Of a stretch of 64,000 nucleotides of DNA, positions 14,427 through 38,092 are shown piece after piece (position 1 is the stretch's first letter; the number at the start of each line of letters is the position of its first letter). The position numbers and the translations under genes were made by a program. The notes under the pieces are model-generated. The model saw only the letters and a list, made by a program, of their open reading frames with translations, was not told the DNA's origin and ran no database searches. Source of the DNA: Candidatus Campbellbacteria bacterium RIFOXYC2_FULL_35_25 (lineage in GTDB: Bacteria; Patescibacteriota; Minisyncoccia; Phycocordibacterales; UBA12079). The stretch is taken from NCBI GenBank assembly GCA_001774495.1, contig MFAE01000014.1:10573-74572 (forward strand), given 5' to 3'.

Positions 14427-14496
14427 GTTTATCGACATACCGTTATATTATAATATAACATTGTGGTATACTATAACAAGCGATATACTGTTGATA

Positions 14497-14703: not shown

Positions 14704-14705
14704 TT

Positions 14706-15776: not shown

Positions 15777-15780
15777 TGAT

Positions 15781-16884: not shown

Positions 16885-16888
16885 AATT

Positions 16889-17998: not shown

Positions 17999-18081
17999 AT
18001 GATAGGGAGCCACGCTTGCGCGCTTATGAGCAGGTGAGGCAATCACAATATGATTTGTTTATGGTGTGTTAAAATAAACTT

Positions 18082-20735: not shown

Positions 20736-21036
20736 GATAGAATATAATTGCGAGCAACGGCTCAACGAGTTGAGCCGTTGATTTAAATCAATTTTATATT
20801 TTTTAACATCATATAGATTAAATTTGCACAATCTGTTTTCTTAATATAAAATCTACCTTAGATTTGTTCTCGAAATTTGAATAGTTGTAAAAACTAAAAC
20901 CGAAAGCAATAACCGTTTTTACGGTTTTTTAATTTTACTGAAAAAAGGAGGTGATTAAATTGGTGTAATTAACGAAGTACCTGACAAGAAATAGGAAGTT
21001 CAGCATGACAAACAAAAAAGACCTAAGGAGGTCAAG

Positions 21037-22245
21037 ATGAAAAGACTGATTTTTCTTTCTCTAATTTTGTTGGGAATAACATTTTCCCAGCATGTGTTCG
21101 CTTCAACTGTAAACTACCAGCCGACACCATATCCTCTTTTGGATAAAAACGGGGATTCAATGTCTCAAGATTTGGACAAGGTTCACCTCTGGGACGGATG
21201 GCTTCCAAGTTACTACTATAACCAAGAGTTTACTCGCGACGATAAACTGCAACTCGGTGGTTGGGGTGACCAGTATCGTATTTATGTCAAATTTGATATT
21301 GAAGGACTTCCTTACGATCCCGATGACGTAATTATGTTTATGAAATCGTTTGACCGTGGAGATTCTTCAACGGCTACACCTTTTGCTTTTTGCCAGGCGA
21401 GTAGTTCGTGGGATTTGTCGTTAACGTGGAATACTCAACCCTCGTTTTCTGGATGTTGGGGTTGGTATAGCGCACCTACACCAGGCGATTGGTGGGGGCG
21501 GTATATAACACCAATGTACTCTGATTGGAAAGATGGGACATCGACAAATTATGGAGTAATGATGTATCCTCAAAACACAAATAATAACTTTAACGTGTTT
21601 AGGAGCTCTCGGTATTCAACCGCAAGTTATCGCCCTGTTTTGCAATTTGTTTTTACTCCAACGATTGAACTCAAAATGCCACTTCCTGGAAATCACACAT
21701 GGTTGGTAACAACCGAAACTGGTGGTTGGGATTGTATGGGTGATTACGACCAATATCATGACGGCACGAATTATTTCTCTCTAGATTTTTCTTGGAGAAA
21801 CCAAGCTGATGCTGGAGCGGCAGTGTATGACGAATCAACTGATGATATTCCTATTCTCGCCGCTGGTGGAGGAAAGGTCTACCAAGCAACGTACTCATCA
21901 GCAAATGGCTATTACGTTGTGATTGATCATGACGGAGACGGTAATATTAACACAGGAGTGTCTACCAGATATCTTCATCTTAAATATTCCCCCTCCGTAA
22001 CAGCTGGTAATACCGTTCAGCAAGGAGCTCTCATCGGTTATATGGGAGATACCGGCTTAAGTAATGGTGTTCATCTTCATTTTGGGGTTCGCTATCAAGA
22101 TAGTGGTTCATCGAGTGTTAACCAGCTTAGTAAAGTAACCGTGGATGGTCAAATTCTGAAAGGATACCAGACAAAATGCTCGGAGAGCAACGGCATCCCA
22201 ACAGATTGGATTCGTTATTATCGTTCTTACAACACAGCTTATTAG
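21037..22245 (+). CDS. Secreted DNRLRE/CBM-like domain + M23 peptidase
   Basis: Signal peptide; YVKFD, LTWNTQP, NYGVMM, RPVL; then GYYVVIDH, TRYLHL, GDTGLSNGVHLHF. Confidence 0.82.
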   Translation: MKRLIFLSLILLGITFSQHVFASTVNYQPTPYPLLDKNGDSMSQDLDKVHLWDGWLPSYYYNQEFTRDDKLQLGGWGDQYRIYVKFDIEGLPYDPDDVIMFMKSFDRGDSSTATPFAFCQASSSWDLSLTWNTQPSFSGCWGWYSAPTPGDWWGRYITPMYSDWKDGTSTNYGVMMYPQNTNNNFNVFRSSRYSTASYRPVLQFVFTPTIELKMPLPGNHTWLVTTETGGWDCMGDYDQYHDGTNYFSLDFSWRNQADAGAAVYDESTDDIPILAAGGGKVYQATYSSANGYYVVIDHDGDGNINTGVSTRYLHLKYSPSVTAGNTVQQGALIGYMGDTGLSNGVHLHFGVRYQDSGSSSVNQLSKVTVDGQILKGYQTKCSESNGIPTDWIRYYRSYNTAY

Positions 22246-22334
22246 ATTTAATCTCGTAAGTTTTACACAGCGGGGCTTTTTGCCTCGCTGTTTTTGTATT
22301 GGAATTATTTAAATTTAATATATAATAATAGATT

Positions 22335-22874
22335 ATGAAAAACAAAAAAATTCTTTTAATTCTTATTATTATCTTAATAATCTTAGGTTTCTTTTATTTT
22401 ACAAAATACGATAAAAATAATAGCGAAGTAATTATTTTGAATGACAACCAAGATGGAACAAAACATCTTGAAACTTATTCAAACGAGAAATATGGTTTTA
22501 TTTTTTCTTACCCTCAAGATTGGAATGCTAAAGCAGAAAATTCTGAATTGATACAACTTTATAATTATTCAAAAATAGGAGACCAAACACTTTCTGAAAA
22601 TGTTTTAAATAAAGTTGAAGTTGTTATTATTGAAGAAATAAATTATGAAGAATCCAGCGATTATCCAGAAGAAAATAAATCTATATCTGATACAGTCATC
22701 GGAGGACAAAATGCGAAGAAAGTTGAGGTAGAACTTATTGGGGGAGAAAAAATTAACTCTTATTATGTTCAAATTCCTTCAATAAACAAATATATTTCTT
22801 TGAGTATTTACGGAGATTCAAAGAATTTCTATGTTCTCGATAATATAGCCAATAGTTTGAGATGGACAAAATAA
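22335..22874 (+). CDS. Membrane-anchored PsbP-like protein
   Basis: N-terminal TM; YSNEKYGFIFSYPQDW. Confidence 0.7.
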   Translation: MKNKKILLILIIILIILGFFYFTKYDKNNSEVIILNDNQDGTKHLETYSNEKYGFIFSYPQDWNAKAENSELIQLYNYSKIGDQTLSENVLNKVEVVIIEEINYEESSDYPEENKSISDTVIGGQNAKKVEVELIGGEKINSYYVQIPSINKYISLSIYGDSKNFYVLDNIANSLRWTK

Positions 22875-23040
22875 TTTAATAAATCTACAAAGCCAAAAGG
22901 GACAAATACACCATTTGTCCCTTTTATCATACAAAACCACACGAAGTGTGGTTTTGGTTGTTTAGGGAGCTTTTTTGTGTGCGCTGGGAGGGTTGGGGCA
23001 AACACAAGATAGAAAGCGTTTTAGTTTTGTTTTGTTTTTC

Positions 23041-23154
23041 TTTGGAGCATATTATAAGGCAATAAAAGAAGAAAGATTGTTAACAAAACATTTTTCTAAT
23101 GAATATTCTGAATATAAAAAACAAGTAAGGGCTTTAATTCCTTTTATTTTCTAG
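23041..23154 (+). pseudogene. 3' remnant of an ICMT/PEMT-family membrane methyltransferase
   Basis: Hand translation FGAYYKAIKEERLLTKHFSNEYSEYKKQVRALIPFIF*; no N-terminal part. Confidence 0.65.
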
Positions 23155-23401
23155 CTCAAAAGAAGAAATAATTTACAGCAACTTTAACTTATTGGTTATT
23201 TGGTTTAGGCCTATTCTAGTTATCCACAATTCATCTAAAAAAGCTTGCTTTTTTTTCTGAGTTTAGTATACTAATTAAAGTACTTATTATTTAGCTTGCT
23301 ACTTAATAGGTACTATGAAAGAAATCGCTTCGGCGGTTTTTTTCATATCTACTGAAGCCATTTTGAGTAGAGGTGAAAAAAACTGACGGTGGTTTAAAAA
23401 C

Positions 23402-23640
23402 AAAAATCCACAGTAGCCAGGCTACTGTGGATTTTTGTTTAGTAACTAAAAACTATCGACTATAAACTATAAACTAAAAACTATTCTTTCTCCTCTTTCA
23501 ACTGTACAAAGAATGTTGAACCTTTTCCTTCTCCTTCCGATTCTGCCCCTATCTTAACATCCTTTTCGGATGTTCGGGCGAACATTTTACCACTAAAACA
23601 ATTTATAAAATTGTTTTAGTGGTAAAATGTTTTAGCCAAA
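23402..23640 (-). repeat. Histidine kinase 3'-end repeat, copy 1 (terminator + heptamers + HK tail + 87-bp palindromic insert)
   Basis: 23481-23548 matches 36506-36573; terminator aatccacagtagccaggctactgtggatt. Confidence 0.92.
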
Positions 23641-23713
23641 TTGTTCCAGGTTCAGTGTTGAATTCAAGATTTATGTTTATAGAAACTTGTTTTTGGGGTA
23701 TAATGATAAAATT

Positions 23714-25003
23714 ATGAAAAAACATATTATTATTGCCACCTATGATGGAATCGGTACTTATTATTCAGGAGTGGGGACCATTGCAAAAAATATCGTTGAT
23801 TCACTTACCATTCTTTCAGATAAAATAGACATAAAAGTCAGTATTGCTTATGTGAGTATGGATAAACAATCAGATGTTTTTAATAAAGGATGTTTTGATA
23901 CAGCAAATAATCTAACCATAAAAACTGGAGGTAAAATGATTCCTTTGTGTAACACCACAAAAGGTCAGAGTGAATGGGATATGTGGAGGAGTTTTGATGA
24001 ATGGAGATTTACTTGTGTGTCACTTGTAACTGCTTTAAACCTTATATTAGATGAGAAAGATGACAATATCATTATTCTTAATGACACGCCATTTTTATTT
24101 TTTTCTAAGTATAAAGACTTGGTTTTAGACAAAAATTTAAAATGTTTCTATTTCCCTTTGAGTACCGGGAAAAATCATGCTTTTGGCGATGAAGATTGGA
24201 GAAATCATAGAATTAAAGCCGAAGAAAGGTGTTTCGAAATAGTTCAAAAGGATCCAAATTCAAAAGTAATATCTTTGGGTGAAAAATTTGCTGAGAGAAT
24301 GAATCAAGATTATGGGTTGAAGTTTGGAGAAGTTGACTATTTGCAAAATGGCTTATGTTTTGATAAATATAAAGATTTTCTTGATACTAAGTTTTCTAAT
24401 AAAGATTTACAAAAATATGGGATTAAAATAGAAGAAGACAAAAAAATAATTTTTGCTTGGGGTAGATGTTCTATCGCAAAAGGATTTAAGGAACTTGCAT
24501 TGGCTTGGGTTAAAGCACATAATTTTTTACCAAATCATTATTTACTTTTACAAATACCAAATAATTCAGGCGAGACTGATTACTTCGATGAGATTAAAGG
24601 AATTCTGAAGAATATTCCTAGGGTTATTATTTTAGACAATTTTAATCCAAATATTTGGAAAACAGTTTTAAGGTCAGTAAATACTGAAATTGTTTGCATC
24701 CCCTCATTAATGGACCCTTTTCCTCACACTTCTATAGAAGCAAAACTTTTCTCAAAAGGAATGAATTATATCACTTTAATTAGCGATATCGACGGAGCCG
24801 TAGACGCTTTCCACGAAGATGAGTGTATATATGTTGATCCTAGGGATACAAAAACTTTTACTGATAAAATTATCGAAGTAGCTAATTTAGATAATTCACA
24901 AAAGAGAGAAATGATTGATAAAAACATTCAGACAATTCAAAATTTCAATTTTCCTAAAATCCTTGAAAAATTTATAAATTCGAATTTATTTAAAAGCAAA
25001 TAG
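23714..25003 (+). CDS. GT-B (GT4-like) glycosyltransferase
   Basis: SGVGT, WGRCSIAKG, IPSLMDPFPHTSIEA, SDIDG. Confidence 0.8.
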   Translation: MKKHIIIATYDGIGTYYSGVGTIAKNIVDSLTILSDKIDIKVSIAYVSMDKQSDVFNKGCFDTANNLTIKTGGKMIPLCNTTKGQSEWDMWRSFDEWRFTCVSLVTALNLILDEKDDNIIILNDTPFLFFSKYKDLVLDKNLKCFYFPLSTGKNHAFGDEDWRNHRIKAEERCFEIVQKDPNSKVISLGEKFAERMNQDYGLKFGEVDYLQNGLCFDKYKDFLDTKFSNKDLQKYGIKIEEDKKIIFAWGRCSIAKGFKELALAWVKAHNFLPNHYLLLQIPNNSGETDYFDEIKGILKNIPRVIILDNFNPNIWKTVLRSVNTEIVCIPSLMDPFPHTSIEAKLFSKGMNYITLISDIDGAVDAFHEDECIYVDPRDTKTFTDKIIEVANLDNSQKREMIDKNIQTIQNFNFPKILEKFINSNLFKSK

Positions 25004-25024
25004 ATATTATTTTAAATTATAAGT

Positions 25025-25777
25025 ATGATATTTAGATGGACAATATGGGGGGAATATAAATTAAAAAATATTGAATTATTAAAATATAGTATTCTTTCAT
25101 TTAAAAAACAATTTGGTGAGAGTCATAATTATGTAGTTTATACAGATGATGAAAAAACTCTTAAAGAGAATCTTAGAGGAATTGCTGAAATTTTTAATAT
25201 TAACTCTTGTGTTGAAAATAAATACAACATTAAATCCAAGGCTACTTGGATGAAATGGTGCCCTTTGGTTAAATTAGATATTGATAAAACTGAGATTTAT
25301 GTTGATTCTGATGTTTTTTTGTTAAAATATCCCATTGAAATTGAAAATTTCATTACTAATCCTAAATTAAAATTTGCAATTATGGATGAGTTTTACGGTC
25401 AGCCATGGCAACATGGAGCTATGCAAAAAAGGGCAACAAAAGTTACTCCTTTTGTTAATGCTGGCCTTTTTATTCAAAAAGCTGGATATAGTATTTCCGG
25501 TGAACTTTCGGAAGAATTTGATTGGTGGGTACAAAATATTTCAAAAGATGAACAGACTCATCATGATGAACAGGGAGCACTGGCAGTAGCCTTAACTAAT
25601 TATTTAGAAAAACAAGAGTTATATATTTTACCTAAAGATAAATATATGTTAATTGGTCCAAACGAGAACAAAGGTATAAAAGATCTAGAGCAAGTTATAT
25701 TATTTCATGCGGTTTATCCTGATCACCCAGCTTTTTATAAATTTAAAGATTATCTCGATAAAATACTTAATTTATAA
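25025..25777 (+). CDS. GT-A fold (GT8-like) glycosyltransferase
   Basis: YVDSDVF, VNAGLF, DEQGAL, late His. Confidence 0.7.
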   Translation: MIFRWTIWGEYKLKNIELLKYSILSFKKQFGESHNYVVYTDDEKTLKENLRGIAEIFNINSCVENKYNIKSKATWMKWCPLVKLDIDKTEIYVDSDVFLLKYPIEIENFITNPKLKFAIMDEFYGQPWQHGAMQKRATKVTPFVNAGLFIQKAGYSISGELSEEFDWWVQNISKDEQTHHDEQGALAVALTNYLEKQELYILPKDKYMLIGPNENKGIKDLEQVILFHAVYPDHPAFYKFKDYLDKILNL

Positions 25778-25806
25778 GTAAAGGTTGTAAATGATATAAT
25801 GTAAAT

Positions 25807-27507
25807 ATGAAAAATAAGTCTAAAGTTGCAATTTTAATGTCTGTAAGAAATGAAGAGATTTTGGTTGATTTTAATATTGCATACCATTTAGATTTAGGTT
25901 TCGACTATATTTTTGTTGCAAACCATTGCTCCACTGATCAAACTAATGAGATTTTAAATTCTTACAAGGATAATCCTCGGGTTGTTGTTATTAATGAAGT
26001 TAACCATGTTTTTGATCATGCTAAAATAATCAATAAACTTTTGAATTTTGCAAATAAAAACTTTAAGATTGATTGGCTCGCTTTTTTGGATGTGGATGAA
26101 TTTCTTTCTATTAAAGAGAAAAACATTCATGAATTTGTTGCAAGGTTAGATTCAAAAAGAATTCCTTATGCGACAATAGGATGGGCAAATGCACTATTCG
26201 ATTATACTCATTCAGATTACACATGTTCTCCTGTGAATAAAATAGATACATTAAAATTTTATTATCCTTGGCCAGAAAAAAACTGGCAAGAATATGGACA
26301 TTTCAGAAAGACGATTGTTAAAAACCATAAAAATATTGAAGTAGTTGCTGGAGGTCACTACGTAAAAACTGAAAATAATCTGAGTTTTTTTGGTGAATTT
26401 GATTGGAATCCTTTCGCTATTCCTTTTGAAGAAGCAAAATTATTACATTTTGAATTTAGAGATACCGCGGAAGCTTTATATGAAAAGTGGCAAAAACTCG
26501 CAGAATTTGAAAATGACACTACCTCAAGTAATAGTGCCCCTTGGTTAGAAAGAATTCAGACAATAAGAAAGTATGTAAAATATTATAAAGATGACATTGA
26601 GAGTATAAATAAAAAATGGTTTTATAATCACAGTACTTTTTGGGGGACTACTATCCCAGAAAATAAAATAATTTATGATAATACTTTAGCTTTATGGTAT
26701 GGTAAATATTTAAGAAATAAAATAAAAAAAGGAAAAATAAAATCTTTGTGTTTATTGCGAAGTGGTAATCTGGGGGATGTTATAATGACTGAACCAATTG
26801 CCAGATTTTTATTAAAATATGTTGACGAAATAGTGCTGGCAACTGATGTAGTAAATTTTAATTTAATCAATAAGACTTATAAAAAAATCATTCCGTTTAA
26901 AAGTGCCTTTATAAATAATAGCTTTGACGCAACAATAAGGCTTGCTTATGAATTCAGTGATAATCAAAAAACATATATTCAAGGATTTATGGAGTCTATA
27001 GGTTTCGGAGATATTGTGATTAATGATATCCCTAGTTTGAATAATAATTTTGAGAATATTGTTAATGAAAAATATGTATTAATTGCTCCTCATATTAGTA
27101 GTTGGGAGGATAAGAAGCGAAATTGGGGTTACTTAAAATTTATTGAGTTAGCTGATCTTATCGAAAAAAATTTAAACATTAAAACCATTATTTTAGAAAA
27201 CACCCATACTTTTAAGGAAATGTTATCTTTGATCTATCATTGTGAATACTTTATAGGAAACGATTCTGGCCCAGGAATAATTTCTCAAAGTTTTAATAAA
27301 AAATCTTTTTTAATTTTTGGAGCAACTCACCCTAAATATTTGCATTTATTAAAATCTACTGTATATATATATGATAAGAATAGACACGCTTTATGCCAAC
27401 ATAAAACACGTCAAGAAGAAATTGATTGCTGCGAATCGTTTTGTATGGATAAATTAAGGGTTAATAGAGTATTTGAAATAATAAAAAACAATTATGAACA
27501 AAAATAA
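25807..27507 (+). CDS. GT2 + GT9 (heptosyltransferase-like) fusion
   Basis: SVRNEE, STDQT, FLDVDEFL, LLHF; then GNLGDVIMT, KRNWG, FIGNDSGP, IFGAT. Confidence 0.82.
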   Translation: MKNKSKVAILMSVRNEEILVDFNIAYHLDLGFDYIFVANHCSTDQTNEILNSYKDNPRVVVINEVNHVFDHAKIINKLLNFANKNFKIDWLAFLDVDEFLSIKEKNIHEFVARLDSKRIPYATIGWANALFDYTHSDYTCSPVNKIDTLKFYYPWPEKNWQEYGHFRKTIVKNHKNIEVVAGGHYVKTENNLSFFGEFDWNPFAIPFEEAKLLHFEFRDTAEALYEKWQKLAEFENDTTSSNSAPWLERIQTIRKYVKYYKDDIESINKKWFYNHSTFWGTTIPENKIIYDNTLALWYGKYLRNKIKKGKIKSLCLLRSGNLGDVIMTEPIARFLLKYVDEIVLATDVVNFNLINKTYKKIIPFKSAFINNSFDATIRLAYEFSDNQKTYIQGFMESIGFGDIVINDIPSLNNNFENIVNEKYVLIAPHISSWEDKKRNWGYLKFIELADLIEKNLNIKTIILENTHTFKEMLSLIYHCEYFIGNDSGPGIISQSFNKKSFLIFGATHPKYLHLLKSTVYIYDKNRHALCQHKTRQEEIDCCESFCMDKLRVNRVFEIIKNNYEQK

Positions 27508-28519
27508 TTTTAAAATAAAACTTTCTTTTGTTAAAGGTTTAAACAAAATTGTTGTAAAAGAAGTCAAAGAAAAAACATCTTATAAAATACTTGAACAAGG
27601 TGTTGATTTTGTTTATTTAAATTTTGATAAAAACTTTGGAAAATTATTTGTTTTAAAAAGTATAGGGTCAGTGAGTATCGTATTAAATGATTTATTGTAT
27701 AATCCTGCGTATTTGTCAAAGCACAAATCTATTTTGAAAGAAGTAATTGATGAAATAATAAATAAAAAGATAGATAAATTTTCTACTTTTAAAGTTTCTT
27801 GCGCTGGTTTAGATTCTCCAGAGGTAAAAAGTATTTCAAAATATATTGGAGATGAGTTTAAATTAAAGGAAAATGTAGAAGCAGATTTAAAAATTAATAT
27901 CGCTAAGGTTAACGATTTATGGGAAGTATCTGTTCAAGCCACAAGAAGGCCACTTTCTTTTAGAAGCTATAAAATTGTTAATATGAGTGGAGCCATGGAT
28001 CCTACAATCGCCTATGCTCTGAATGAGTATTGTAATGTAAAGAAAAAGAAAACATATCTGAATGCTTTTTCTGGAAGTGCGACTTTGTTGATTGAAGCTG
28101 GGTTAAGTAGCCAAGATTTAGAAACTTTAGTTGGTTTCGATAATGATAAATCACATTTGACATTGGCTTATCAAAATATAAAACAAGCAGGTTTAATTAG
28201 AAGGATAAAACTTCTTGAGCATGATATATATGAACAGCCAAAAATAGGGAAATTTGATGTTATCGTAGCAGATTTACCCTTTGGTATGGTTATTTCAAAA
28301 AATGAAGACTTGGAAAAAATGTATACCGCTTTTGTAAATTTTGCCGAAAATTCTTTAGAGGAGAAGGGTGTCTTAGGGGTTTATACTAATGAGTATAGGT
28401 TGTTTAAAGAGGTGTTAGATTTATCTAAATGGAAAATTATCGAAGAAGTTGACTTAAAGCTACCAACAAATGTTAATTCATATTTATATCCAAAAATATT
28501 CGTATGCAAGAAAATATAA
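27494..28519 (+). CDS. SAM-dependent RNA methyltransferase (THUMP/Trm14-RlmL-like)
   Basis: PLSFRSY, GAMDPTIA, FSGSATLLIEA, ADLPFG. Confidence 0.8.
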   Translation: MNKNNFKIKLSFVKGLNKIVVKEVKEKTSYKILEQGVDFVYLNFDKNFGKLFVLKSIGSVSIVLNDLLYNPAYLSKHKSILKEVIDEIINKKIDKFSTFKVSCAGLDSPEVKSISKYIGDEFKLKENVEADLKINIAKVNDLWEVSVQATRRPLSFRSYKIVNMSGAMDPTIAYALNEYCNVKKKKTYLNAFSGSATLLIEAGLSSQDLETLVGFDNDKSHLTLAYQNIKQAGLIRRIKLLEHDIYEQPKIGKFDVIVADLPFGMVISKNEDLEKMYTAFVNFAENSLEEKGVLGVYTNEYRLFKEVLDLSKWKIIEEVDLKLPTNVNSYLYPKIFVCKKI

Positions 28520-29844
28520 TCGAATTAGATTTAAAAAAATACTTATTGCAATTTTCAGATAGCAAGGTTGATTTTTATCGTTTCCCTGGAAATTATGGAG
28601 ATTCTTTGATTTATCACGGAACAAAAACTTTATTAGATGAGTTAAATATAGGCATTGATCTTGTTGAAATAGATTCTGATGTTATTAATGATATTTTATT
28701 TATCGATGGTGGAGGGAATTTTGTGGATGAGTATGACGATGTTTATAATTTTCTAGTTAAAAAACACAGAATGTATAAAAAAATCGTATTATTACCTCAT
28801 ACAATTAGAGGAGAAAAAGAAGCTAGACTTATTCAGTCTTTGGATTCGAATGCAACTATTTTTTGTAGGGAAAAAATCACCTATGAATTTGTTAAAAAGA
28901 ATGCAAAAAAAGCAGAGTATTATCTTTGGAGTGATTGTGCTTTTTACAACGATTTAATAAATTACTTAGAAGTTGGTGAGGGAATTTTAAATTCTTTTAG
29001 AGTAGATGTTGAATCAAGCAAAAAAGAATTACCTGCTGATAATGAAGATATCTCATATGACGGATGGTGTATGAAGCCTTTGAAAGACTTTCTTGGAAAA
29101 ATACAAAAATATGAAGAGATTAGAACTGATAGATTACATGTTGCTATAGCTAGTGCTATGCTCGGTAAGAGAGTATTGTTTTATTCTAACTCGTATTATA
29201 AAAATAAGGCAGTTTACGAGTATTCGCTAAAAAAATACCCACAAGTCATATTTGTATATGAAAATGATTATAATCTAATTTCCTATAATCAAATCCGTTC
29301 TGTATTTTTGGAACATCTTAATAGTGAGACTGTTAAAACAAAAGATAATGTTTTGGATTTATTTAGTGAATTAATTTCTATAAACCATAAATTATGGCAC
29401 TTTGAGGACCTAGCAAGAAATTTAGAATCAACTGATAAATTAGTGAGAGAAATTAAAAAAAATATTGATAAATCAAATCAATCAAGAAATGATCTTATCA
29501 GAAAAATTGATTTTAATTTAATTGATCTACTAAACAACAAAGAGAGTAAGGATATAGAAAAGTTTATCTCTGAAAGTCCTGCTGTATTTATAGATAGGCT
29601 TTCAATTATGTTTATAAGAAAGTTTGAGATAGAAAGGCTTGTGTTTTGTATAAATGATAATCAAAATTTGAATGATATTTATATTCAAAAATTAGATGTA
29701 ATTAATAGTCAGATTAATTTTAATGGCAAGTTTTTAGAATCTCTTTTTAATAAGATAAGATTAGGAACAATATTTTTCAAAATATTTAATCCTGTAAAAA
29801 TATATAATGATCATAGAATCCAAAAATATATAGCTAAAACATAA
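28504..29844 (+). CDS. Polysaccharide pyruvyltransferase + DUF4254 fusion
   Basis: GNYGDSLI, GGGNF, CRE, TDRLHVAI, NSYYKN; then LWHFEDLAR, IDKSNQSRND, ESPAVFIDRLSI. Confidence 0.8.
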   Translation: MQENIIELDLKKYLLQFSDSKVDFYRFPGNYGDSLIYHGTKTLLDELNIGIDLVEIDSDVINDILFIDGGGNFVDEYDDVYNFLVKKHRMYKKIVLLPHTIRGEKEARLIQSLDSNATIFCREKITYEFVKKNAKKAEYYLWSDCAFYNDLINYLEVGEGILNSFRVDVESSKKELPADNEDISYDGWCMKPLKDFLGKIQKYEEIRTDRLHVAIASAMLGKRVLFYSNSYYKNKAVYEYSLKKYPQVIFVYENDYNLISYNQIRSVFLEHLNSETVKTKDNVLDLFSELISINHKLWHFEDLARNLESTDKLVREIKKNIDKSNQSRNDLIRKIDFNLIDLLNNKESKDIEKFISESPAVFIDRLSIMFIRKFEIERLVFCINDNQNLNDIYIQKLDVINSQINFNGKFLESLFNKIRLGTIFFKIFNPVKIYNDHRIQKYIAKT

Positions 29845-29851
29845 AAAGAGG

Positions 29852-30058
29852 GTAGACCTAAGGCACAAAGCATTTTTTACAGATAAAATAAGAGTTGATG
29901 AAAACAAACCTCAATTATATGGGGCACAAGTTAGAAAAAAAGAAAACGGAGAAATAGAATTAATTGAAATAGAAGACAGAGAAAATGTAAATAAAAGGAG
30001 AAAGGAACTTGGGATGGAATCGCTAGAGAAGTATTTGGAACAATTTGGTGTTAAGTAA
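29852..30058 (+). pseudogene. 3' remnant of a DUF6624-like gene
   Basis: Hand translation VDLRHKAFFTDKIRVDENKPQLYGAQV...IEDRENVNKRRKELGMESLEKY...*; no start codon. Confidence 0.7.
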
Positions 30059-30129
30059 AAAATTAATAGAAATTCTATTTTTAATTAGATTTATTTAAAA
30101 GTAACTTAAAATTTTAATAATCTCCTACA

Positions 30130-30325
30130 CCTGTGGATTTTTATTTAGTAACTATCGACTATAAACTATAAACTAAAAACTATTCTTTCTCCTCTTTCAA
30201 CTGCACAAAGAAAGTAGAACCTTTTCCTTCTCCTTCCGATTCTGCCCAAACTTTTCCTCCGTGAGCTTTTACGATTTCTTTTATATTTTAACATAATTTT
30301 AAAAATTTTTAGTTTTTTATTGACA
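30130..30325 (-). repeat. Histidine kinase 3'-end repeat, copy 2, plus common arm
   Basis: 30180-30283 matches 36506-36609 with 2 synonymous changes; followed by atattttaacataattttaaaaatttttagttttttattgaca. Confidence 0.92.
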
Positions 30326-30442
30326 TTTTTATTGACAGTTACAAGACTTTTGCTTGACAAAATAGTTTAGGTTGTTATTATTTAAGTAAACACAGTTCTT
30401 TATGGTAAAGTAGTCTTAATTTAAGAAAATAAGGAGAATGCA

Positions 30443-30529
30443 ATGAATACAGAGATGACAATCGAAGAAGTTTTTAAAAAGGAACGTCGCGGGCCAAAGG
30501 GTGGTTGTTCTAACGGAATCGCGGTGTAA
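30443..30529 (+). CDS. Putative RiPP precursor (28 aa, MNTEMTIEEVFKKERRGPKGGCSNGIAV), not in ORF track
   Basis: AAGGAG SD, TTGACA promoter, downstream hairpin, directly upstream of an ATP-grasp gene. Confidence 0.65.
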   Translation: MNTEMTIEEVFKKERRGPKGGCSNGIAV

Positions 30530-30616
30530 TAACACCAAGCTCTTTTTTAGCAGAGAGGTGACGCAAGTCACCTCTTAACTTTTTTAGAAATCAGATTTTA
30601 ACAAAAGGAGCTTAGA

Positions 30617-31576
30617 ATGTTATTAATATTTTCTAGTACCTTGTCAAAGAAAAGTTTTCAACTCCAATTATTTGTAGAGGAAATGAAAAGAAGAGGTCTT
30701 CCTTGTGTTGTTGTTGATGTTCATGACATCGCTACTAATACAAAATTCTCAATTCAGCATAGTAATGATGGTGCATTTTTGTTTGAAGATGGTCAAAAAA
30801 TAATATCACCCCAAAAAGTTTATGTCATGAATGTTTGGAGAACTGATTCAATTATACGTTTACCCCCAGATTTTGATAAACCTCAATTGATTAGAAACAG
30901 AGTCTCTCAATTCGTAAATGATATTCGTTTTATTTTTGAAGATTGCATGTGGGTTCCTGGGAGAATTGAGGATATTGAGCGGGCTGATTCAAAAATGAGG
31001 CTATTCAAAGAAGCAGTTAGTTGTGGCCTCAATGTTCCTCGTTTTACAATCGATTCGCCTCATTACGATGGTAAGTTTGGAATTCCCGTCTATAAAAAAA
31101 GTCTTGGGTACCCATTTTCTATTTCTTACTCTAAGCAAAAGAAAAAAGAGGTTGCAGTTATTACGACAAATCTTCTTGTTGACAAGGAAAGTGATTCTGT
31201 GGGAGATGGTTTATTGTGGCAGTGGCAAGCTCCAATTTTGTCGAGCAAACAGATTCGGTGTCATGTTGTTGGAAACAAAATTTGGTCGGTAATGTGGGAT
31301 CGTGGTGTTTGTGGCGTTGAAGATTACAGGCATACATCCAACATAAAAAATGAAGTCATCAATTGGAAGCCCCACTCTCTTCCGGCGGAGATTTCTTCTC
31401 AAATTTTAAAATTAATGAAAAACCTTTCTGTGTGTATGGCAAGCCCAGAGTTTCTCGTTGATAAAAACGGGGATTACATATTAATTGACCTTAATCCTTG
31501 TGGTGATTGGTATGGGTTCTTCTCTAAAATTCAACGCAAAGAAATTTTGGACTCGATTATCCAGTTGTGTTGTTAG
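30617..31576 (+). CDS. ATP-grasp ligase resembling graspetide (MvdC/MvdD-type) maturases
   Basis: RADSKMR, GLNVP, YKKSLG, WQWQ, IRCHVVG, EDYR, IDLNPCGDWYGF. Confidence 0.78.
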   Translation: MLLIFSSTLSKKSFQLQLFVEEMKRRGLPCVVVDVHDIATNTKFSIQHSNDGAFLFEDGQKIISPQKVYVMNVWRTDSIIRLPPDFDKPQLIRNRVSQFVNDIRFIFEDCMWVPGRIEDIERADSKMRLFKEAVSCGLNVPRFTIDSPHYDGKFGIPVYKKSLGYPFSISYSKQKKKEVAVITTNLLVDKESDSVGDGLLWQWQAPILSSKQIRCHVVGNKIWSVMWDRGVCGVEDYRHTSNIKNEVINWKPHSLPAEISSQILKLMKNLSVCMASPEFLVDKNGDYILIDLNPCGDWYGFFSKIQRKEILDSIIQLCC

Positions 31577-31631
31577 GGAAAAATTTTTGTTCGAAACTTG
31601 TTGTAACCAGATAAAGGTTGCAACAAGTTTT

Positions 31632-32195
31632 TTAAAAATATTTTTTAACTTTTTCCGTATAATTTGGGTCTGATATATTGTGGTTAACATCGGGAATTAT
31701 AAAAATCTCTTTTTTAGGAGCAATGATTTTTTTGTAAGAAATTTTTGAACGACGAATTGTTAGTGGCCATTCATTACTACCAACTAAAAAAGTTGTTTTT
31801 GCAGATATTTGTTTTGGAAGTCTTGTAGATTTAAATTCCAACATTCTTCTTTTGCCAAGTATTTTAAAAGCCAAATCTGGTAATTTATTAATATCATCTT
31901 CAAAATAAGGGGATAAAGAGCAAGATATAATTTTGTCTATTTTCGTCTTTTCACTTGCTAATAATGCAATGAAAGCACCAAAAGAAAAACCTATCACTGT
32001 TGTATTTTGATGACTAGAACCAACTTTTTTTGAAAAATCACTCACCCAATCAGACATTTTTTTGTATTTCCATTCGGGTTCCCAAAAAACAACATCGTAC
32101 CCCTTTTCTTTTCCAGATTTTATTAGTTGTTTGTATCCTAGATTTTTTGGGGATTCATGATACCCAGGAATTATATATAATTTTTCTTTTTGCAT
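31632..32195 (-). CDS. Small alpha/beta-hydrolase-like protein (paralog 1)
   Basis: YIIPG, GFSFGA nucleophile elbow, SLSP, C-terminal His. Confidence 0.75.
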   Translation of the reverse strand: MQKEKLYIIPGYHESPKNLGYKQLIKSGKEKGYDVVFWEPEWKYKKMSDWVSDFSKKVGSSHQNTTVIGFSFGAFIALLASEKTKIDKIISCSLSPYFEDDINKLPDLAFKILGKRRMLEFKSTRLPKQISAKTTFLVGSNEWPLTIRRSKISYKKIIAPKKEIFIIPDVNHNISDPNYTEKVKKYF

Positions 32196-32241
32196 AATAA
32201 TTACTACTTACTACTTAATACCCAATACTTGATACTTGATA

Positions 32242-32476
32242 CTATTCTTTCTCCTCCTTCAACTGTACAAAGAATGTTGAACCTTTTCCTTCTCCTTCCG
32301 ATTCTGACCCTATCTTAACATCCTTTTCGGATGTTCGGGCGAACATTTTACAACTAAAACAATTTATAAAATTGTTTTAGTGGTAAAATGTTTTAGCCAA
32401 ACCTTTCCTCCAGGGGCTTTTACTATTTCCTTTATATTTTAACATAATTTTAAAAATTTTTAGTTTTTTATTGACA
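32242..32476 (-). repeat. Histidine kinase 3'-end repeat, copy 3, with 87-bp insert and common arm
   Basis: HK match 32242-32309 and 32397-32434; insert nearly identical to copy 1. Confidence 0.92.
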
Positions 32477-32580
32477 GTATGCTTAAACGAGAGTAGCATT
32501 CAAGCGTAAGAGTTTGTATAGGATAAACTCTGTTCTTTGAGTATTTTTCAGATGGAAACTTGTTTTAAGGAGGTTTCGTT

Positions 32581-32796
32581 ATGTCAAAGTGGACAGACAA
32601 GGATACGTCGGATTATTCGGGGGATTCCCCGAGTAAGGTTTCATCAGCAGAACATCAGGCTCGCGACGATGCCGAAAGGGCTGGATTATTTGAACGTGGT
32701 AATTCTGAGAAAAACAGGGAGCGTTTCAGCCACACAGATGAATCTGGTAAGGAGGCGACAAGTTTTTGGGAATCCATTTTCGGATCCAAAAAATAA
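32581..32796 (+). CDS. Small hydrophilic protein (71 aa)
   Basis: AAGGAGG SD; promoter homologous to 34006-34078; hairpin after stop. Confidence 0.7.
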   Translation: MSKWTDKDTSDYSGDSPSKVSSAEHQARDDAERAGLFERGNSEKNRERFSHTDESGKEATSFWESIFGSKK

Positions 32797-32974
32797 GAAG
32801 TGTGGTGTTGATTTACGGCGGGCAAATGGAAAAAATGCCCGCCACTTTTAATTTATCTTGTTTTTGTTGTATTATATTAAGATAAATCATGAACCATAAA
32901 ATGGTTTCTTATAATTAATTTAATGGCGAATAAGTTAAAATTACAAATCATTTTTATAATTTAAAGCAATTAAT

Positions 32975-33511
32975 ATGAATAGAATTTATAATATAAAATA
33001 TACAGATGCCTATTATATTGATTTATCTTACGGGCATAACAAAAAATTACATAAGACAAAATTATCAGAGCATGAGGCTTATGGGTATGCAGAAAAATAT
33101 GGTAATAATATCGTAATTGCTTTTATAAAAGAAGAAAAAGACGATAGAAAAATCTCAGATAAAATAAAAAGAAAGGAGCATCTCATTAAAGGGATTATTG
33201 TTCCGGATACATCCATTCTATCTAAATTAACAAGTTTTAAAAGAAATATTTTCAAAAATATTCCTTTGGGATCAGAGGTGGTTGTTAATTGGAGAGATAT
33301 AGTTATTGTTGCAAATCAATCAAGATATGACTGTTCCACTATGTATACAGAGGGAGTATTTTTTAGAAACGAAGAAGATCATATTGTTTTAAAAAATCCA
33401 GAAACTATTCGTACCTATCCGACACCAGTTACAAATCATCCGATGGAAAAACCTCTTTTTTATGTTATTCCGAAGTCGTTTATCGTTGATATTTCTCCTG
33501 TAAATAATTAG
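32975..33511 (+). CDS. Hypothetical protein with two repeats of a possible Sm-like beta-barrel
   Basis: Repeat pattern [VI]x[WY]xD...G...IP..I. Confidence 0.6.
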   Translation: MNRIYNIKYTDAYYIDLSYGHNKKLHKTKLSEHEAYGYAEKYGNNIVIAFIKEEKDDRKISDKIKRKEHLIKGIIVPDTSILSKLTSFKRNIFKNIPLGSEVVVNWRDIVIVANQSRYDCSTMYTEGVFFRNEEDHIVLKNPETIRTYPTPVTNHPMEKPLFYVIPKSFIVDISPVNN

Positions 33512-33512
33512 A

Positions 33513-33758
33513 ATGGAAAAAAATAATTTAAAAAAAGAGAGAGAAGAAAACCAAATTGTAGAAATTATTCTGCACGATGATTCAAATACAATAAAAAAGT
33601 ATAAATGTGTTGGTGTTCTGATGAAAGAAAATGAAAAAACGTTAAGAATTGGATTTAACGCTGTTGAAAATGTTGTTAAAGATTATTTAGATATTAAGAA
33701 AAAAAATATAGTGGATATAAAAACAATTAATCCGAAAGAAATTTCTTCTTTATTTTGA
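33513..33758 (+). CDS. Hypothetical protein, possible single Sm-like domain
   Basis: IVEIILHD...CVGVLMKENE...IKKKNIVDI. Confidence 0.6.
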   Translation: MEKNNLKKEREENQIVEIILHDDSNTIKKYKCVGVLMKENEKTLRIGFNAVENVVKDYLDIKKKNIVDIKTINPKEISSLF

Positions 33759-33785
33759 GGTTAAATTTATTTCTATCAATGCCTA

Positions 33786-34011
33786 AAAAATCCACAGTAG
33801 CCAGGCTACTGTGGATTTTTGTTTAGTAACTAAAAACTATCGACTATAAACTATAAACTAAAAACTATTCTTTCTCTTCCTTCAACTGCACAAAGAAAGT
33901 AGAACCTTTTCCTTCTCCTTCCGATTCTGCCCAAACTTTTCCTCCATGAGCTTTTACGATTTCTTTTATATTTTAACATAATTTTAAAAATTTTTAGTTT
34001 TTTTATTGACA
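33786..34011 (-). repeat. Histidine kinase 3'-end repeat, copy 4, with terminator and common arm
   Basis: 33865-33968 matches the HK tail with only synonymous changes. Confidence 0.92.
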
Positions 34012-34123
34012 GTATACTTAAATGAGGGTAATATTTAAGTGTAAAAGTTTGTATAGTACAAACTTTGTTCTTTGAGTAGCTTTTACTCTAAATTTTTTTG
34101 TGCCAAAAAAGGAGGTGGGAGAA

Positions 34124-34237
34124 TTGGGCAAAGATATTATTGAGAAGATTATTCGTGATTCCTGTTATTTGGATAATTATTGTGACACACCGGGATATAA
34201 TGATCATTCCGGAAGTGATGAACATAACAAAAATTGA
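34124..34237 (+). CDS. Putative RiPP precursor with three YxD motifs (37 aa, MGKDIIEKIIRDSCYLDNYCDTPGYNDHSGSDEHNKN), not in ORF track
   Basis: AAGGAGGTGG SD before TTG 34124; directly upstream of a radical SAM/SPASM gene. Confidence 0.72.
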   Translation: MGKDIIEKIIRDSCYLDNYCDTPGYNDHSGSDEHNKN

Positions 34238-34310
34238 TGGAGGAAAAGTTGAAGGAGGGTGTGGTAAAAACACCCTCCTTCTTTAATAAAAAAGGTAATG
34301 AGGTGTTACC

Positions 34311-35399
34311 ATGTTTTATCCGACGCTTAAAGTTGTTTCTAGTAATTGTAATTTAAGATGCGTTTATTGTTATTACAAAGGAATTCACAGAAAAAAACCA
34401 ATAAGGATGAATGATATAACTTTAAAGAGCATAATTCAAAAATTATTAGCACTTAGCGGCGAAGAGAAAGAAGTTCATTTTTACTGGCACGGAGGAGAGC
34501 CTCTTTTAGCCGGAATAGATTTTTATCAAAAGATTATTTTACTGGAAAATGAATTAAATGTGTATGGTAAGAAAATCTGTAACCATATTCAAACAAATGC
34601 CACTTTGTTAACCGATAATTGGGTAGATTTTTTAGTGGGCAATGATTTTAATGTTGGAATTAGTCTTGATGGTCCAAAAGAAATTCAAGACGTCAATCGG
34701 CCAACTATTTCTGGGGGAGGGAGTTTTGATTCTGTGATGAAAGGTTTGAAACTTTTTCAAGAAAGAGAAAAATTTCCTAGTATCATTTCGGTTGTAACCA
34801 ACGAATCCCTCGGTAATGCTAACAAAATCTTTGATTTTTTTGTTGAAAACAAAATTAAAAGATTTTTACCAAAGGATTGCTGTGAAAGAGATGAAACTGG
34901 TAAATTTCTTCCTTTTTCAACAACTCCCGATGAGTATGTTGATTTTTTGATTGAATTATTTGAGTGTTGGATGAGTAAAAACGATCCAACTATCGAAATT
35001 AGAAATCTCTACCAAATAATCAGGGGTGTTGTTGGAGGGAAGACAACCCTTTGTGAGTATAGTGGGAGGTGCCATTTGTTCTTGACGATTGAGTATGATG
35101 GAACAATTGGCGGTTGTGACAGTTTCCCTGTAAAAAATTATCCAATGGGGAACATAAATGATTCCGCTGTTAGCAGTATTTTCGGGAGTCATGGTTATAA
35201 ATCTTTTTTAAGGGATATGGAATCAACAAGATTAGACTGTCACCATTGTGAGTGGTTTGGCAATGTTTGTGGTGGTGGGTGTTTGGGTCATTCCTATTCC
35301 GAACAAAATTCTGCTTGGGGGAAAAATATTTTTTGTACTCCCAAAAAGAGACTCTTTGAATATATAAAAAGAAGAGTCTCCGAAATACAAAATAATTGA
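34311..35399 (+). CDS. Radical SAM/SPASM peptide maturase (anSME/cyclophane-synthase-like)
   Basis: CNLRCVYC, WHGGEPLL, QTNATL, ISLDG; SPASM cysteines CEYSGRC...GGCD...CHHCEWFGNVCGGGC...C. Confidence 0.9.
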   Translation: MFYPTLKVVSSNCNLRCVYCYYKGIHRKKPIRMNDITLKSIIQKLLALSGEEKEVHFYWHGGEPLLAGIDFYQKIILLENELNVYGKKICNHIQTNATLLTDNWVDFLVGNDFNVGISLDGPKEIQDVNRPTISGGGSFDSVMKGLKLFQEREKFPSIISVVTNESLGNANKIFDFFVENKIKRFLPKDCCERDETGKFLPFSTTPDEYVDFLIELFECWMSKNDPTIEIRNLYQIIRGVVGGKTTLCEYSGRCHLFLTIEYDGTIGGCDSFPVKNYPMGNINDSAVSSIFGSHGYKSFLRDMESTRLDCHHCEWFGNVCGGGCLGHSYSEQNSAWGKNIFCTPKKRLFEYIKRRVSEIQNN

Positions 35400-35453
35400 G
35401 TGAAACGGCAGGTAAACACATTGTTGCCTGTCGTTTTTTAATAAGATTTTAAA

Positions 35454-36434
35454 TTACCTTATTATTTTAATAATTTCACTTATAAAGTGTTTATCTATTT
35501 TTTTATTATCGTTTAAATATTCTTTGATCAGAGGATGTAGGTTTATCGCTATAAAAAAGTACACACCTATTTCATCATTTCTAGTTATGTTGCTTTTGTT
35601 ATTTTTAACAGATATAAAAGTATTTTTGTATTTTTTGAGATTTGAAGACGTTGTTTCTTTCGGGTGTTTGTAAAAATATTTATTTGACAAAAATCCGTGG
35701 TAAGAAAACAAAGAATGAACGACAATTTCTTCCATGGTATTTCTCAGGTCACGATAGGGTATTATTTTACTCTTCCCATTCTCTTCATAGAAATGACTGC
35801 TAATTATTCTAATTTTTTTTCCAAATAGCATGTGTAAAAATTCATGGTAAACAACAGATATTGCGTTGTTCAAAATCTCTTTTCCTGTCTCTGAAAGGTC
35901 GTTGCATTCAATTGTTATCCCTTTGTTTTTTAAGTTAGCTCCACCAGATACAATCTTATTTTTGTAAGGGTGTTGCAGTAGATAAATATCAAATTTTCTT
36001 CTTCTAATTTTACCGAATAAAGTTTCTAAAGCATTTATTATTTTTGGTAAAGTCTTATTAATTTCTTTTGTTAATATTTTAATATTTTTTTCTAAAATCT
36101 GGGAATTCCAGATTTCTTTGAATTTATCTTCAAAAATATCAAAAATTTCTTTTAATTCTCCTAGCTCTGTTTTTGTGACAATCTTTGAAAGATTTTTCCA
36201 AACCTTTTTTTCTTTACTTGTGATAAAAAATAATCCTAAATAATTTGCAAAATTATATTTTTGTAAAATTTTTTTAAATTGTTCTAGTGAATTTTTTTCT
36301 TTTTTTGATAAATCGCCGATTTTATTCAGCCAAACTTCATTATAATTTTTTCTGCAAGAAAAATGCCATTCTGTTAAATTTGAAACAAAGAAAAATTTAT
36401 TACCCATTCTGCTATATTTAATATTAAATTGCAT
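35454..36434 (-). CDS. HEXXH (zincin-like) protein
   Basis: SGGA...VYHEFLH...MEEIVV. Confidence 0.65.
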   Translation of the reverse strand: MQFNIKYSRMGNKFFFVSNLTEWHFSCRKNYNEVWLNKIGDLSKKEKNSLEQFKKILQKYNFANYLGLFFITSKEKKVWKNLSKIVTKTELGELKEIFDIFEDKFKEIWNSQILEKNIKILTKEINKTLPKIINALETLFGKIRRRKFDIYLLQHPYKNKIVSGGANLKNKGITIECNDLSETGKEILNNAISVVYHEFLHMLFGKKIRIISSHFYEENGKSKIIPYRDLRNTMEEIVVHSLFSYHGFLSNKYFYKHPKETTSSNLKKYKNTFISVKNNKSNITRNDEIGVYFFIAINLHPLIKEYLNDNKKIDKHFISEIIKIIR

Positions 36435-36505
36435 ATCTATACCTGTGGATTTTTATTTAGTAACTACAAACTAAAAACTATCGACTATAAACTATAAACT
36501 AAAAA

Positions 36506-38092
36506 CTATTCTTTCTCCTCTTTCAACTGCACAAAGAAAGTTGAACCTTTTCCTTCTCCTTCCGATTCTGCCCAAACTTTTCCTCCGTGTGCTTTTACGA
36601 TTTCTTTTACTAAATAGAGACCCAAGCCCGTTCCCATCACACTAACGCTGTTGGCATTTTCGAGTCTGATAAATTTCTTGAAGATTTTGTGAGCTTCCTT
36701 CTTTGGTAATCCGATACCAGTATCTTGTATTTTTAATAGTATTTTATGAGCTTTTTTTGATAGGCTAATATGAATAGAACCCTTCGGAGTATATTTGATT
36801 GAATTATCAATCAAATTGGTGACAATTTGTCTTATTTTTTCTGGGTCAATTTGTGAAAAGAATATTCCTTCTTGTAATTCAAATTTCATTTTTAGGCCTT
36901 TTTCTTCAATAACATGTTTCATGTCATTAACGACTTCTTGAACTATGGGTTTAATATCGGCTTTAACAAAATTAAATTCAATTTTACCTCTCTCTATCCT
37001 TGAAAGGTTAAGGAAGTCGTCTACGATAAAAGCTAGATTGCTACTTGATTGAAAAATTCTTTTAATTATTTCAGAAATTTTTTCAGATGTCGGTCCGTAT
37101 GATCCTTCCATCACCATTGAAGAGTAGCCCTTTATGGAAGCAATAGGGGCTCTTAATTGGTGAGAGGCAACGGAAACAAAATCAGATTTTTGTTGGTCAA
37201 GTTTTTTAAGTCTAATATTCGCTTTTTCAAGTTCCTCTGCAAGTAATTCGATTTTTCTTTTCGCTTGTATTTCTTTGAAAATACTTCTGTTCAGGAGAAC
37301 CACAAAAATGACCATCATGACAAATAAGGCAAAATTTATCATCCATTCATCTACCGAATTCGTTGGCTTCAAAAAATTAAACAAGAAGATTAAGGCCATT
37401 GCTCCAGAAAAAAGTTGAGCAGAGATTATTTTTGTATTTAAAAATTTGTATTTAAGGATAGCGTAACTTACAAAAAATACATATAAGATTATAAAATAAT
37501 TTCCAAAAGGATAAATATTGAAAAGTTGAGGAAAAAAGTTTGTAATTCCCCCACTGAAACCAATAAATCCAGCAATTATTTGGTTTCTTATCTGCCCACG
37601 GTAAAGATAATCTTTTTTATTTTTTAAGTATGTTTTTATTAGATACAGTAAAGAGATTATTATTATAATTATAAAAAAGGTCGGAAATAAAAAATAATAT
37701 TTTCCGGGATCTACCCAATAAAAATCAAAAGTTTTTACCACTCCTAGTTTGAACAATGGAGAAAAACTAAAAATTGCTAATAATCCAGTGAGAAAAAGGA
37801 CAGCTTTTTTAAAATTAGTTTTTTTTATTTCTAAAAAATTAAAAATAAAATTAAGATATAGAATAGGAATAAAAATTGCTGTAAAGTCTAAGCAATATAA
37901 CCATAATAAAGCTGAATTTTCTGTTTGGGAGTAAGCCCCTTTGTAAAGAAAAATGCTCCAAAAAGCAATAAATATAGATAAAATTAACCAAGATTTATTT
38001 AGTTTTGATCTTCTGTTGCTAGAGTATACAATTAAACCAAAACCGATACTGGTAAAAAAAGTTATAATACTTGTTATTCCAAATAATGTCAT
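36506..38092 (-). CDS. 7TM sensor histidine kinase
   Basis: Multi-TM N-terminus; ASHQLRAP, NLIDNSIKYT, DTGIG, GTGLGL, GKGSTF. Confidence 0.93.
   Translation of the reverse strand: MTLFGITSIITFFTSIGFGLIVYSSNRRSKLNKSWLILSIFIAFWSIFLYKGAYSQTENSALLWLYCLDFTAIFIPILYLNFIFNFLEIKKTNFKKAVLFLTGLLAIFSFSPLFKLGVVKTFDFYWVDPGKYYFLFPTFFIIIIIISLLYLIKTYLKNKKDYLYRGQIRNQIIAGFIGFSGGITNFFPQLFNIYPFGNYFIILYVFFVSYAILKYKFLNTKIISAQLFSGAMALIFLFNFLKPTNSVDEWMINFALFVMMVIFVVLLNRSIFKEIQAKRKIELLAEELEKANIRLKKLDQQKSDFVSVASHQLRAPIASIKGYSSMVMEGSYGPTSEKISEIIKRIFQSSSNLAFIVDDFLNLSRIERGKIEFNFVKADIKPIVQEVVNDMKHVIEEKGLKMKFELQEGIFFSQIDPEKIRQIVTNLIDNSIKYTPKGSIHISLSKKAHKILLKIQDTGIGLPKKEAHKIFKKFIRLENANSVSVMGTGLGLYLVKEIVKAHGGKVWAESEGEGKGSTFFVQLKEEKE

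Follow-up and report, generated by a model that had tools for sequence, protein, structure and literature searches.

Displaced copies of a sensor kinase 3' end separate accessory gene blocks in an integrase-free array of Paceibacteria

In rhs loci, as set out in the available text of Jackson et al. (2009, PMC2935791), an intact conserved gene is trailed by pieces of itself that differ in length and have low-GC genes between them, and a two-step circle model based on homologous recombination has been put forward, which predicts that fragment lengths vary. In the available account of Vibrio type VI secretion system (T6SS) effector-immunity arrays (PMC5361080), accretion is integron-like without a known integrase, 3' gene ends are shunted back, and homology-facilitated illegitimate recombination is proposed. 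Tandem integrase-less islands bordered by direct repeats at a gene 3' end are further described, in the parts available, for cis-mobilizable and integrative and mobilizable elements (CIME/IME) and for Dehalococcoides ssrA (PMC5704250, PMC3146451). Here we analysed a 64,000-nt stretch (the window; contig C14, 10573-74572) of the 782-kb, 15-contig genome of an ultra-small groundwater bacterium, Candidatus Campbellbacteria bacterium RIFOXYC2_FULL_35_25, in which several fragments of the 3' end of a sensor histidine kinase gene, separated by other genes, lie in a row behind the intact gene, the arrangement by which rhs-type arrays are recognised. This array is a real feature, and the locus is one example of a hot spot for integrase-free gene capture that recurs in Paceibacteria. 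The best reading of our analysis is that the mechanism proposed for rhs displacement may operate here on a kinase tail, with general cargo drawn from a class-wide pool.

The likeness to rhs (PMC2935791, available text) includes a shared gene pool, the lack of an integrase and the proposal of insertion by homologous recombination. The locus is nevertheless not an rhs locus: its anchor is a sensor kinase and not an Rhs/polymorphic-toxin core; the displaced piece is the conserved end, so that the protein stays essentially unchanged, whereas rhs displaces a variable tip; and what varies is unrelated cargo (maturases of the type that acts on ribosomally synthesised and post-translationally modified peptides, glycosyltransferases, extra tRNA synthetases) instead of a toxin tip with its immunity gene. 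In the T6SS arrays, as far as described, old effectors are replaced and immunity genes kept, whereas here whole blocks are kept and the marker is the kinase tail. CIME/IME, in the available descriptions, carry att repeats that are short and fixed, and the integrase is encoded by some members; here the repeats span 40-400 nt, the breakpoints vary and no member encodes a recombinase. In place of a fixed attL/attR pair, junctions fall at two positions in the window and at 20 among 23 junctions elsewhere, and neither the 109 cargo open reading frames (ORFs) scanned at 15 loci nor the window cargo include an integrase. The islands of Ca. Actinomarinales (PMC7771536, available text) are likewise additive and flexible, but they target tRNA genes, not a protein-coding gene. 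We found no description of kinase-tail arrays in the literature searched, from which subscription journals were largely absent and in which supplementary island tables might list such loci.

Five copies of the kinase tail, the live one included, lie in the window (Table 1) and none elsewhere in the assembly. An earlier note, made from the sequence alone, had placed repeats of the last ~104 nt of the gene at 33865, 32242 and 30180 and a 68-nt repeat at 23481. All of these coordinates hold; what the note overlooked is an 87-nt insert in two of the copies. Copies 33865 and 30180 are uninterrupted 104-nt repeats, whereas copy 32242 consists of 68 nt, the insert, a doubled CC and the other 36 nt, and copy 23481 passes from 68 nt of kinase end into the insert and then into unrelated DNA. 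A further 55-80 nt 3' of the stop codon are common to the live gene and three of the four copies; the flank of copy 32242 differs. The outermost tail presumably marks the oldest end of the array. The copies delimit the four cargo blocks that had been proposed, with the labels proposed for them: a radical S-adenosylmethionine (rSAM) enzyme with a peptide and a HEXXH protein; small ORFs; an ATP-grasp enzyme with a peptide and a hydrolase; and a glycosyltransferase cluster. These blocks measure 1.3-6.5 kb and have 28-34% GC, against 35-36% in core stretches. A family scan of the window cargo proteins returned no integrase-type gene, in agreement with the earlier note.

Table 1. Features of the kinase-tail array, from the live gene outwards (window coordinates).
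Position	Strand	Feature	Remark
36506..38092	-	Live sensor histidine kinase, 528 aa	HisKA_7TM, HisKA, HATPase_c; conserved 3' end is the anchor
36437..36609	-	Last 104 nt of the live gene, with the heptamer repeats and half terminator 3' of it that the copies also have	
35454..36434	-	326-aa protein, HEFLH (HEXXH) motif, without Pfam/NCBIfam match	In G046 and G151, homologues adjoin rSAM genes that follow kinase tails
34311..35399	+	Radical SAM/SPASM enzyme, anSME/DynA-like	Below family cut-offs
34100..34237	+	45-aa ORF, putative precursor peptide	Role from position
33969..34078	+	Arm A, comprising the end motif, an A/T tract, a promoter match and two hairpins	TTGACA-17-TAATAT at 34006-34034
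33865..33968	-	104-nt kinase tail, displaced	5 synonymous changes
33786..33864	.	Heptamer repeats and a complete terminator-like palindrome following copy 33865	
32581..33758	+	Three short ORFs of 71, 178 and 81 aa	No family assigned with confidence
32435..32548	+	Second copy of arm A	TTGACA-17-TAGCAT at 32471-32499
32242..32434	-	Kinase tail in two parts (68 + 36 nt), displaced, with the 87-nt insert between them	8 synonymous, 2 non-synonymous changes
32310..32396	.	87-nt insert with two hairpins, bordered by a doubled CC	z -9
31632..32195	-	Alpha/beta hydrolase	Same direction as copy 32242
30617..31576	+	ATP-grasp enzyme, MvdC/MvdD-like	Below cut-offs
30443..30529	+	28-aa ORF, putative precursor peptide	Role inferred
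30284..30381	+	Third copy of arm A, with ~42 nt at its start in common	Region's best promoter match at 30354-30381
30125..30283	-	Displaced kinase tail (30180-30283), downstream flank of live-gene type	2 synonymous changes
29846..30058	+	Start-less remnant of DUF6624 gene	
23711..29844	+	GT4, unknown 250 aa, GT2/GT9, RNA methyltransferase, pyruvyl transferase-DUF4254	
23549..23635	.	Second copy of the 87-nt two-hairpin insert	z -12.5
23398..23548	-	Outermost tail, displaced (68 nt, 23481-23548), with complete terminator-like palindrome	2 synonymous changes

Aligned with the live gene, the displaced tails carry 17 synonymous and 2 non-synonymous differences (per copy in Table 1), or 11:2 when each distinct allele is counted once (p = 1.2e-6, with 20% synonymous sites as the expectation). 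Because the differences are mostly synonymous, the copies were once translated; they encode the same peptide as the live kinase end, in an anchor with HisKA/HATPase_c domains. All four gametes are present at 5 site pairs, so the copies either recombined among themselves or mutated recurrently. In three relatives (G005, L040 and L041; other species, not strains), the kinase orthologue (65-67%) faces aspS with nothing in between. The 17:2 ratio and these empty junctions thus uphold the proposal of the earlier note that the copies were once working gene ends, which one insertion after another displaced. A filled site occurs in another relative, G006, where a displaced tail of 177 nt, 92% like the genome's own live gene, lies behind 4.8 kb of cargo, with another breakpoint and no arm like that described below. 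This cargo includes a second hisS (32% to the genome's own, 62% to that of G002) with a tRNA-His, and is therefore chromosomal DNA; the join clips the stop of a cargo gene. The live kinase of G006 could be foreign over its whole length, but its displaced tail (131/159) does not resemble G005 more closely than the live tail does (135/159).

Three of the displaced copies in the window share one breakpoint and continue into an identical arm of ~43 nt ending in TTGACA (arm A), much as first noted. The arms of copies 33865 and 32242 are alike over ~115 nt, with two common hairpins that show paired changes. A sigma-70 match in each arm points into the cargo and is among the region's top-scoring sites; the promoter scan overall was at chance (69 vs 70.4), so these predictions rest on position and top scores. 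Arm A is accordingly a predicted promoter region of the cargo. The two 87-nt inserts start at the same kinase base and differ at 1 position in 87; as a REP/REPIN-like element (repetitive extragenic palindrome type) the insert was rejected, because it has just two copies and does not resemble the palindromes next to the six Y1 transposase genes of the genome. No match to the arm junction pattern was obtained in metagenome contigs, and no real match to arm or insert in 18 family genomes, phages and plasmids; 130 viral pattern loci gave weak A/T-rich matches at most and Rfam gave chance microRNA-type matches only. Short hairpin inserts like the 87-nt one also break displaced tails in G151 (L209 14095-14123, 16024-16064) and G304 (L206 9007-9031).

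Kinase tails are displaced in other Paceibacteria as well. When the last 60 aa of the kinase were compared with 301 genomes of the order (including the unpublished G636), six loci were inspected among the best 150 of 922 matches and four proved to be true displaced tails (G563, G508, G632, G685). A comparison of the last 36 aa with 281 genomes of the class gave 518 matches, the best 150 of which came from 117 other genomes (hand count); ten of the sixteen loci inspected among these had a displaced tail together with another copy on the contig (G304, G046, G281, G151, G049, G301, G367, G285, G111, G110). With G006, displaced tails were thus verified in 15 other genomes, and several form arrays (five tails in G304, four to five in G151, four in G281, three in G046, two in G049). 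Lone interior tail fragments in G203 and G121 were counted apart, and loci at a contig edge or with no second copy (G584, G227, G155, G150, G260), at a contig edge (G259, G055) or with a full-length frame and an internal stop (G507) were left out. Synonymous changes were in excess in all five other genomes counted (10:4, 14:3, 12:4, 20:3 and 27:17).

The remnants are 3'-terminal, mostly shorter than 400 nt and 75-99% identical to the intact gene. Excluding copies limited by a contig edge, 23 junctions in 14 genomes occupied 20 positions that lie 37-268 nt ahead of the end of codon 523, with no common upstream arm (best 12/17) and no ATGTTAA motif; the window tails measure 104 and 68 nt, with junctions at 92 (three) and 56 nt. 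The fixed breakpoint suggestive of an att site is peculiar to this genome among those examined. Among 123 ORFs called in cargo regions, 14 were kinase-fragment, shadow or flanking ORFs; none of the 109 scanned was an integrase, resolvase or transposase, and one was a reverse transcriptase, a 265-aa ORF just beyond a displaced tail in G110 (L218 5024-5821). The pool of cargo across the class comprises rSAM/SPASM enzymes, ATP-grasp enzymes with DUF6624, NUDIX proteins, toxin-antitoxin pairs and tRNA synthetases. The rSAM and HEXXH genes of the window recur in G046 (43%, 37%) and G151, and its methyltransferase and DUF6624 genes in G046. The ATP-grasp query was not found in 400 class genomes or viral contigs; 34 distant homologues, without genomic context, were retrieved. 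Synthetases lie between tails in G006 (L042 2199-3682), G151 (L209), G281 (L208) and G632 (L204) and comprise histidyl-tRNA synthetase (HisRS) with tRNA-His, ArgRS, ValRS and class II enzymes, the HisRS of G006 being a second, foreign copy. An in-frame fusion of a kinase fragment with a NUDIX-methyltransferase ORF occurs in G281 (L208 1482-2711).

As a control, aspS gave no orphan-plus-live pair among the best 150 of 254 matches and, in a further comparison with all matches listed, 1 orphan tail (uninspected) in 136 genomes. A preference for the kinase over aspS is suggested, though not proven, by Fisher's test (p = 0.003, 10/117 vs 1/136): p is 0.057 with the wider denominator 10/221, the two comparisons used different thresholds, kinase genes are multi-copy, and related genomes do not count as independent.

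Part of the window stretch is contained in 13 runs from 7 studies, four of which (X1, X2, X4, X10) were checked over 20500-33500; uncovered regions in X2, X4 and X10 carry no weight. X1, a possible source run, covers all blocks in this range at a depth of 28-42 (36-42 in the glycosyltransferase block, 28-30 in the ATP-grasp and small-ORF blocks, 31-32 in the flank). In X2, a contig from another study (30217-30804) joins kinase tail 30180, its arm and the ATP-grasp block, and X10 holds pieces of the ATP-grasp and small-ORF blocks. A joint of 23346 to 30159 in X10 was not counted as an empty allele, one side being 24 nt long and 23238-23346 being repeated on contig C5. The cluster-member assemblies are re-assemblies and yield no alleles. 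A branch at ~28300 in X1 hints at a second strain or organism that shares part of the glycosyltransferase block.

The tails are allelic and were once functional, insertion is additive, breakpoints vary, cargo is shared and no recombinase is linked. We think it probable that the cargo blocks were added successively by RecA-type recombination between resident and imported kinase tails, with no predicted need of an integrase. The kinase tail is likely a common landing pad for imported genes, and DNA carrying it was likely taken up by competence: recA, comEC and dprA are found in the genome, and Patescibacteria are described as taking up DNA and carrying many islands (PMC12455944, whose main text, as available, mentions neither 'cassette' nor 'integrase'). 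Once, an illegitimate join would have placed cargo beside a kinase tail. Cargo between two tails could then be excised as a circle, or a linear molecule could pair with the array out of register. A crossover in the conserved ATP-binding end would restore an intact kinase with the donor tail, each arrival shunting the old tail downstream; intact kinase and shunted tails, the products of this crossover, are in place. The three arm-A junctions may be copied descendants of one join, with cargo swapped between tail and promoter arm, and hairpin mini-inserts such as those present would gather in tails already dead.

Several points weigh against this account. Homologies of 68-104 nt are short for RecA. 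Homologous recombination leaves unexplained why three copies in the window share one breakpoint, and gives no account of the motif in which both arm A and the 87-nt insert end (14/17 bases), the strongest hint of an enzyme-defined end: this likeness was equalled by 54 of 200,000 random genomic 22-mers, and all five genomic copies of the motif abut kinase fragments. Enzymes that could act in trans are encoded on other contigs, namely one Xer-like tyrosine recombinase, one intact large serine recombinase and six Y1 transposases. Elsewhere in the class, the breakpoints of copies that are 75-90% identical are alignment-defined and hence approximate, and G632 and G685 have the same breakpoint but different flanks. 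Finally, neither a junction of the small circles proposed in the earlier note nor an empty allele of this species was seen, though the run contigs end at repeats and Logan contigs cannot show either.

These points leave room for other explanations. Every orphan tail could be an independent join made by one-step homology-facilitated illegitimate recombination, in which linear donor DNA pairs upstream, within the kinase or ahead of it, an illegitimate join links its foreign end to a point inside the resident gene, and no tail-flanked cassette travels. Such a process has been proposed for T6SS effector arrays (PMC5361080, available text), where it is also put at orders of magnitude rarer than homologous recombination. 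It would suit the scattered breakpoints and missing arms across genomes, as well as the clipped stop and chromosomal cargo of G006, but it cannot yield three joins at one base with one arm in the window, and it predicts remnants all along the gene whereas nearly all are shorter than 400 nt. We therefore regard it as unlikely to have built the array, and consider that it probably made the first join only.

The same threefold breakpoint would be expected if a trans-acting recombinase or HUH enzyme recognised the end motif AAAANNATGTTAARATA and inserted non-autonomous cassettes at fixed points of the kinase, a CIME-like accretion for which integrase-less islands at Dehalococcoides ssrA (PMC3146451, available text) offer a precedent. 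The end motif shared by arm A and insert, the doubled CC around the insert, the hairpins conserved in two arms and the candidate enzymes in the genome are all in line with it. Yet the 23 junctions elsewhere occupy 20 positions, none with the motif; the 4 motif matches in 18 family genomes never lie beside kinase fragments; none of the 109 cargo ORFs is a recombinase; and the arm can be accounted for as a predicted cargo promoter. The junction also lacks a dyad, and an XerD-like box, judged by the dif consensus, is wrongly oriented and absent from the live gene. Site-specific accretion thus appears rather improbable, though the fixed breakpoint and common end motif keep a site-specific helper possible in this genome. 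Local duplication of the gene end followed by decay, or an assembly artefact, is most improbable: no contig listed spans the entire array and block depths in X1 differ (28-42), but the copies differ at synonymous sites that only a functional history explains, each junction examined (20500-33500) is bridged in X1 or X2, and the pattern recurs in 15 independent assemblies. Successive RecA-type recombination also sorts the earlier note's suggestion that the cassettes are either RecA/competence-driven or non-autonomous: the former fits the class-wide data, while elements served by a site-specific integrase are not supported, as breakpoints are scattered across genomes and the arm is not common. 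It is a doubtful but conceivable extension that Paceibacteria have an integrase-free counterpart of the integron, in which class-wide, tail-tagged cassette circles dock at one kinase and a lineage enzyme recognising hairpins makes ends at a defined motif.

The genome-wide recombinase search that the earlier note had advised returned the Xer-like, serine and Y1 enzymes, none of them in cargo; IS110 and MobP-type relaxases were not found with the families searched. Known modules were compared using the dif and attC consensus sites. An integron was rejected (the sole tyrosine recombinase is on another contig, the cassettes have their own predicted promoters and the insert is without attC cores), as was an Xer/dif module of the IMEX or pdif kind (the XerD-like box occurs only in the arm, the junction lies outside it and the live gene has none); a tyrosine-integrase dyad in the arm was ruled out on geometry. 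The large serine recombinase (548 aa, C13:2080-3726) has a 77% identical relic of its 3' end at C10:1048-1312. Genome-wide there are 161 perfect inverted repeats with stems >=14, several families of which lie beside the six Y1 genes, as in systems that pair REP sequences with their associated tyrosine transposases (RAYT-REP).

The array defines a recurrent entry point for accessory genes in Patescibacteria: kinase tails are displaced in at least 10 of 280 sampled class genomes, in some of them as arrays. Both the sequence of insertions and the limits of each gain can be read from the tails, which makes the locus minable for the accessory biology of the candidate phyla radiation (peptide maturases, spare tRNA synthetases, surface-sugar enzymes). 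The rhs displacement model would thereby extend from toxins to a signalling gene that serves as a neutral anchor.

The surroundings of the array also differ from those in relatives. Where the relatives' kinase faces aspS next to mraY (L043, L040 and L041 compared with window 36506-60219), the block is relocated here, and aspS lies on the far side of the kinase beyond 17 kb of further accessory genes, including three small hydrolase paralogues (44103, 45503, 46061), two M16 peptidases and a second rSAM. Upstream of the kinase, L039, L040 and L041 are mosaics of 76-99% identity, from either recombination or chimeric assembly. On the outer side, a promoter-plus-hairpin segment (23238-23379, z -3.1), possibly a small RNA or leader, forms the flank of the array; it has three genomic copies (the others at C5:66747-66855 and C5:71071-71213), one directly behind mraY. 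Apart from the kinase, few of 533 ORFs have an orphan copy of their 3' end; one that does is a 223-aa gene (20064-20735), whose 3' end (20583-20735) recurs near a tRNA-Ser (C8:55794-56112; L045 9795-10113). There it is joined to segment 22881-23038, from which 2.1 kb separate it in the window, and C8 lacks the intervening M23 peptidase and PsbP-like genes. A read joint of 20735 to 22887 is explained by this copy. Further out, 13514-18000 is likely the start of a larger island containing the array, with a tRNA-Ala followed by XRE regulator, methyltransferase-like and HNH-type genes, as labelled from their sequences.

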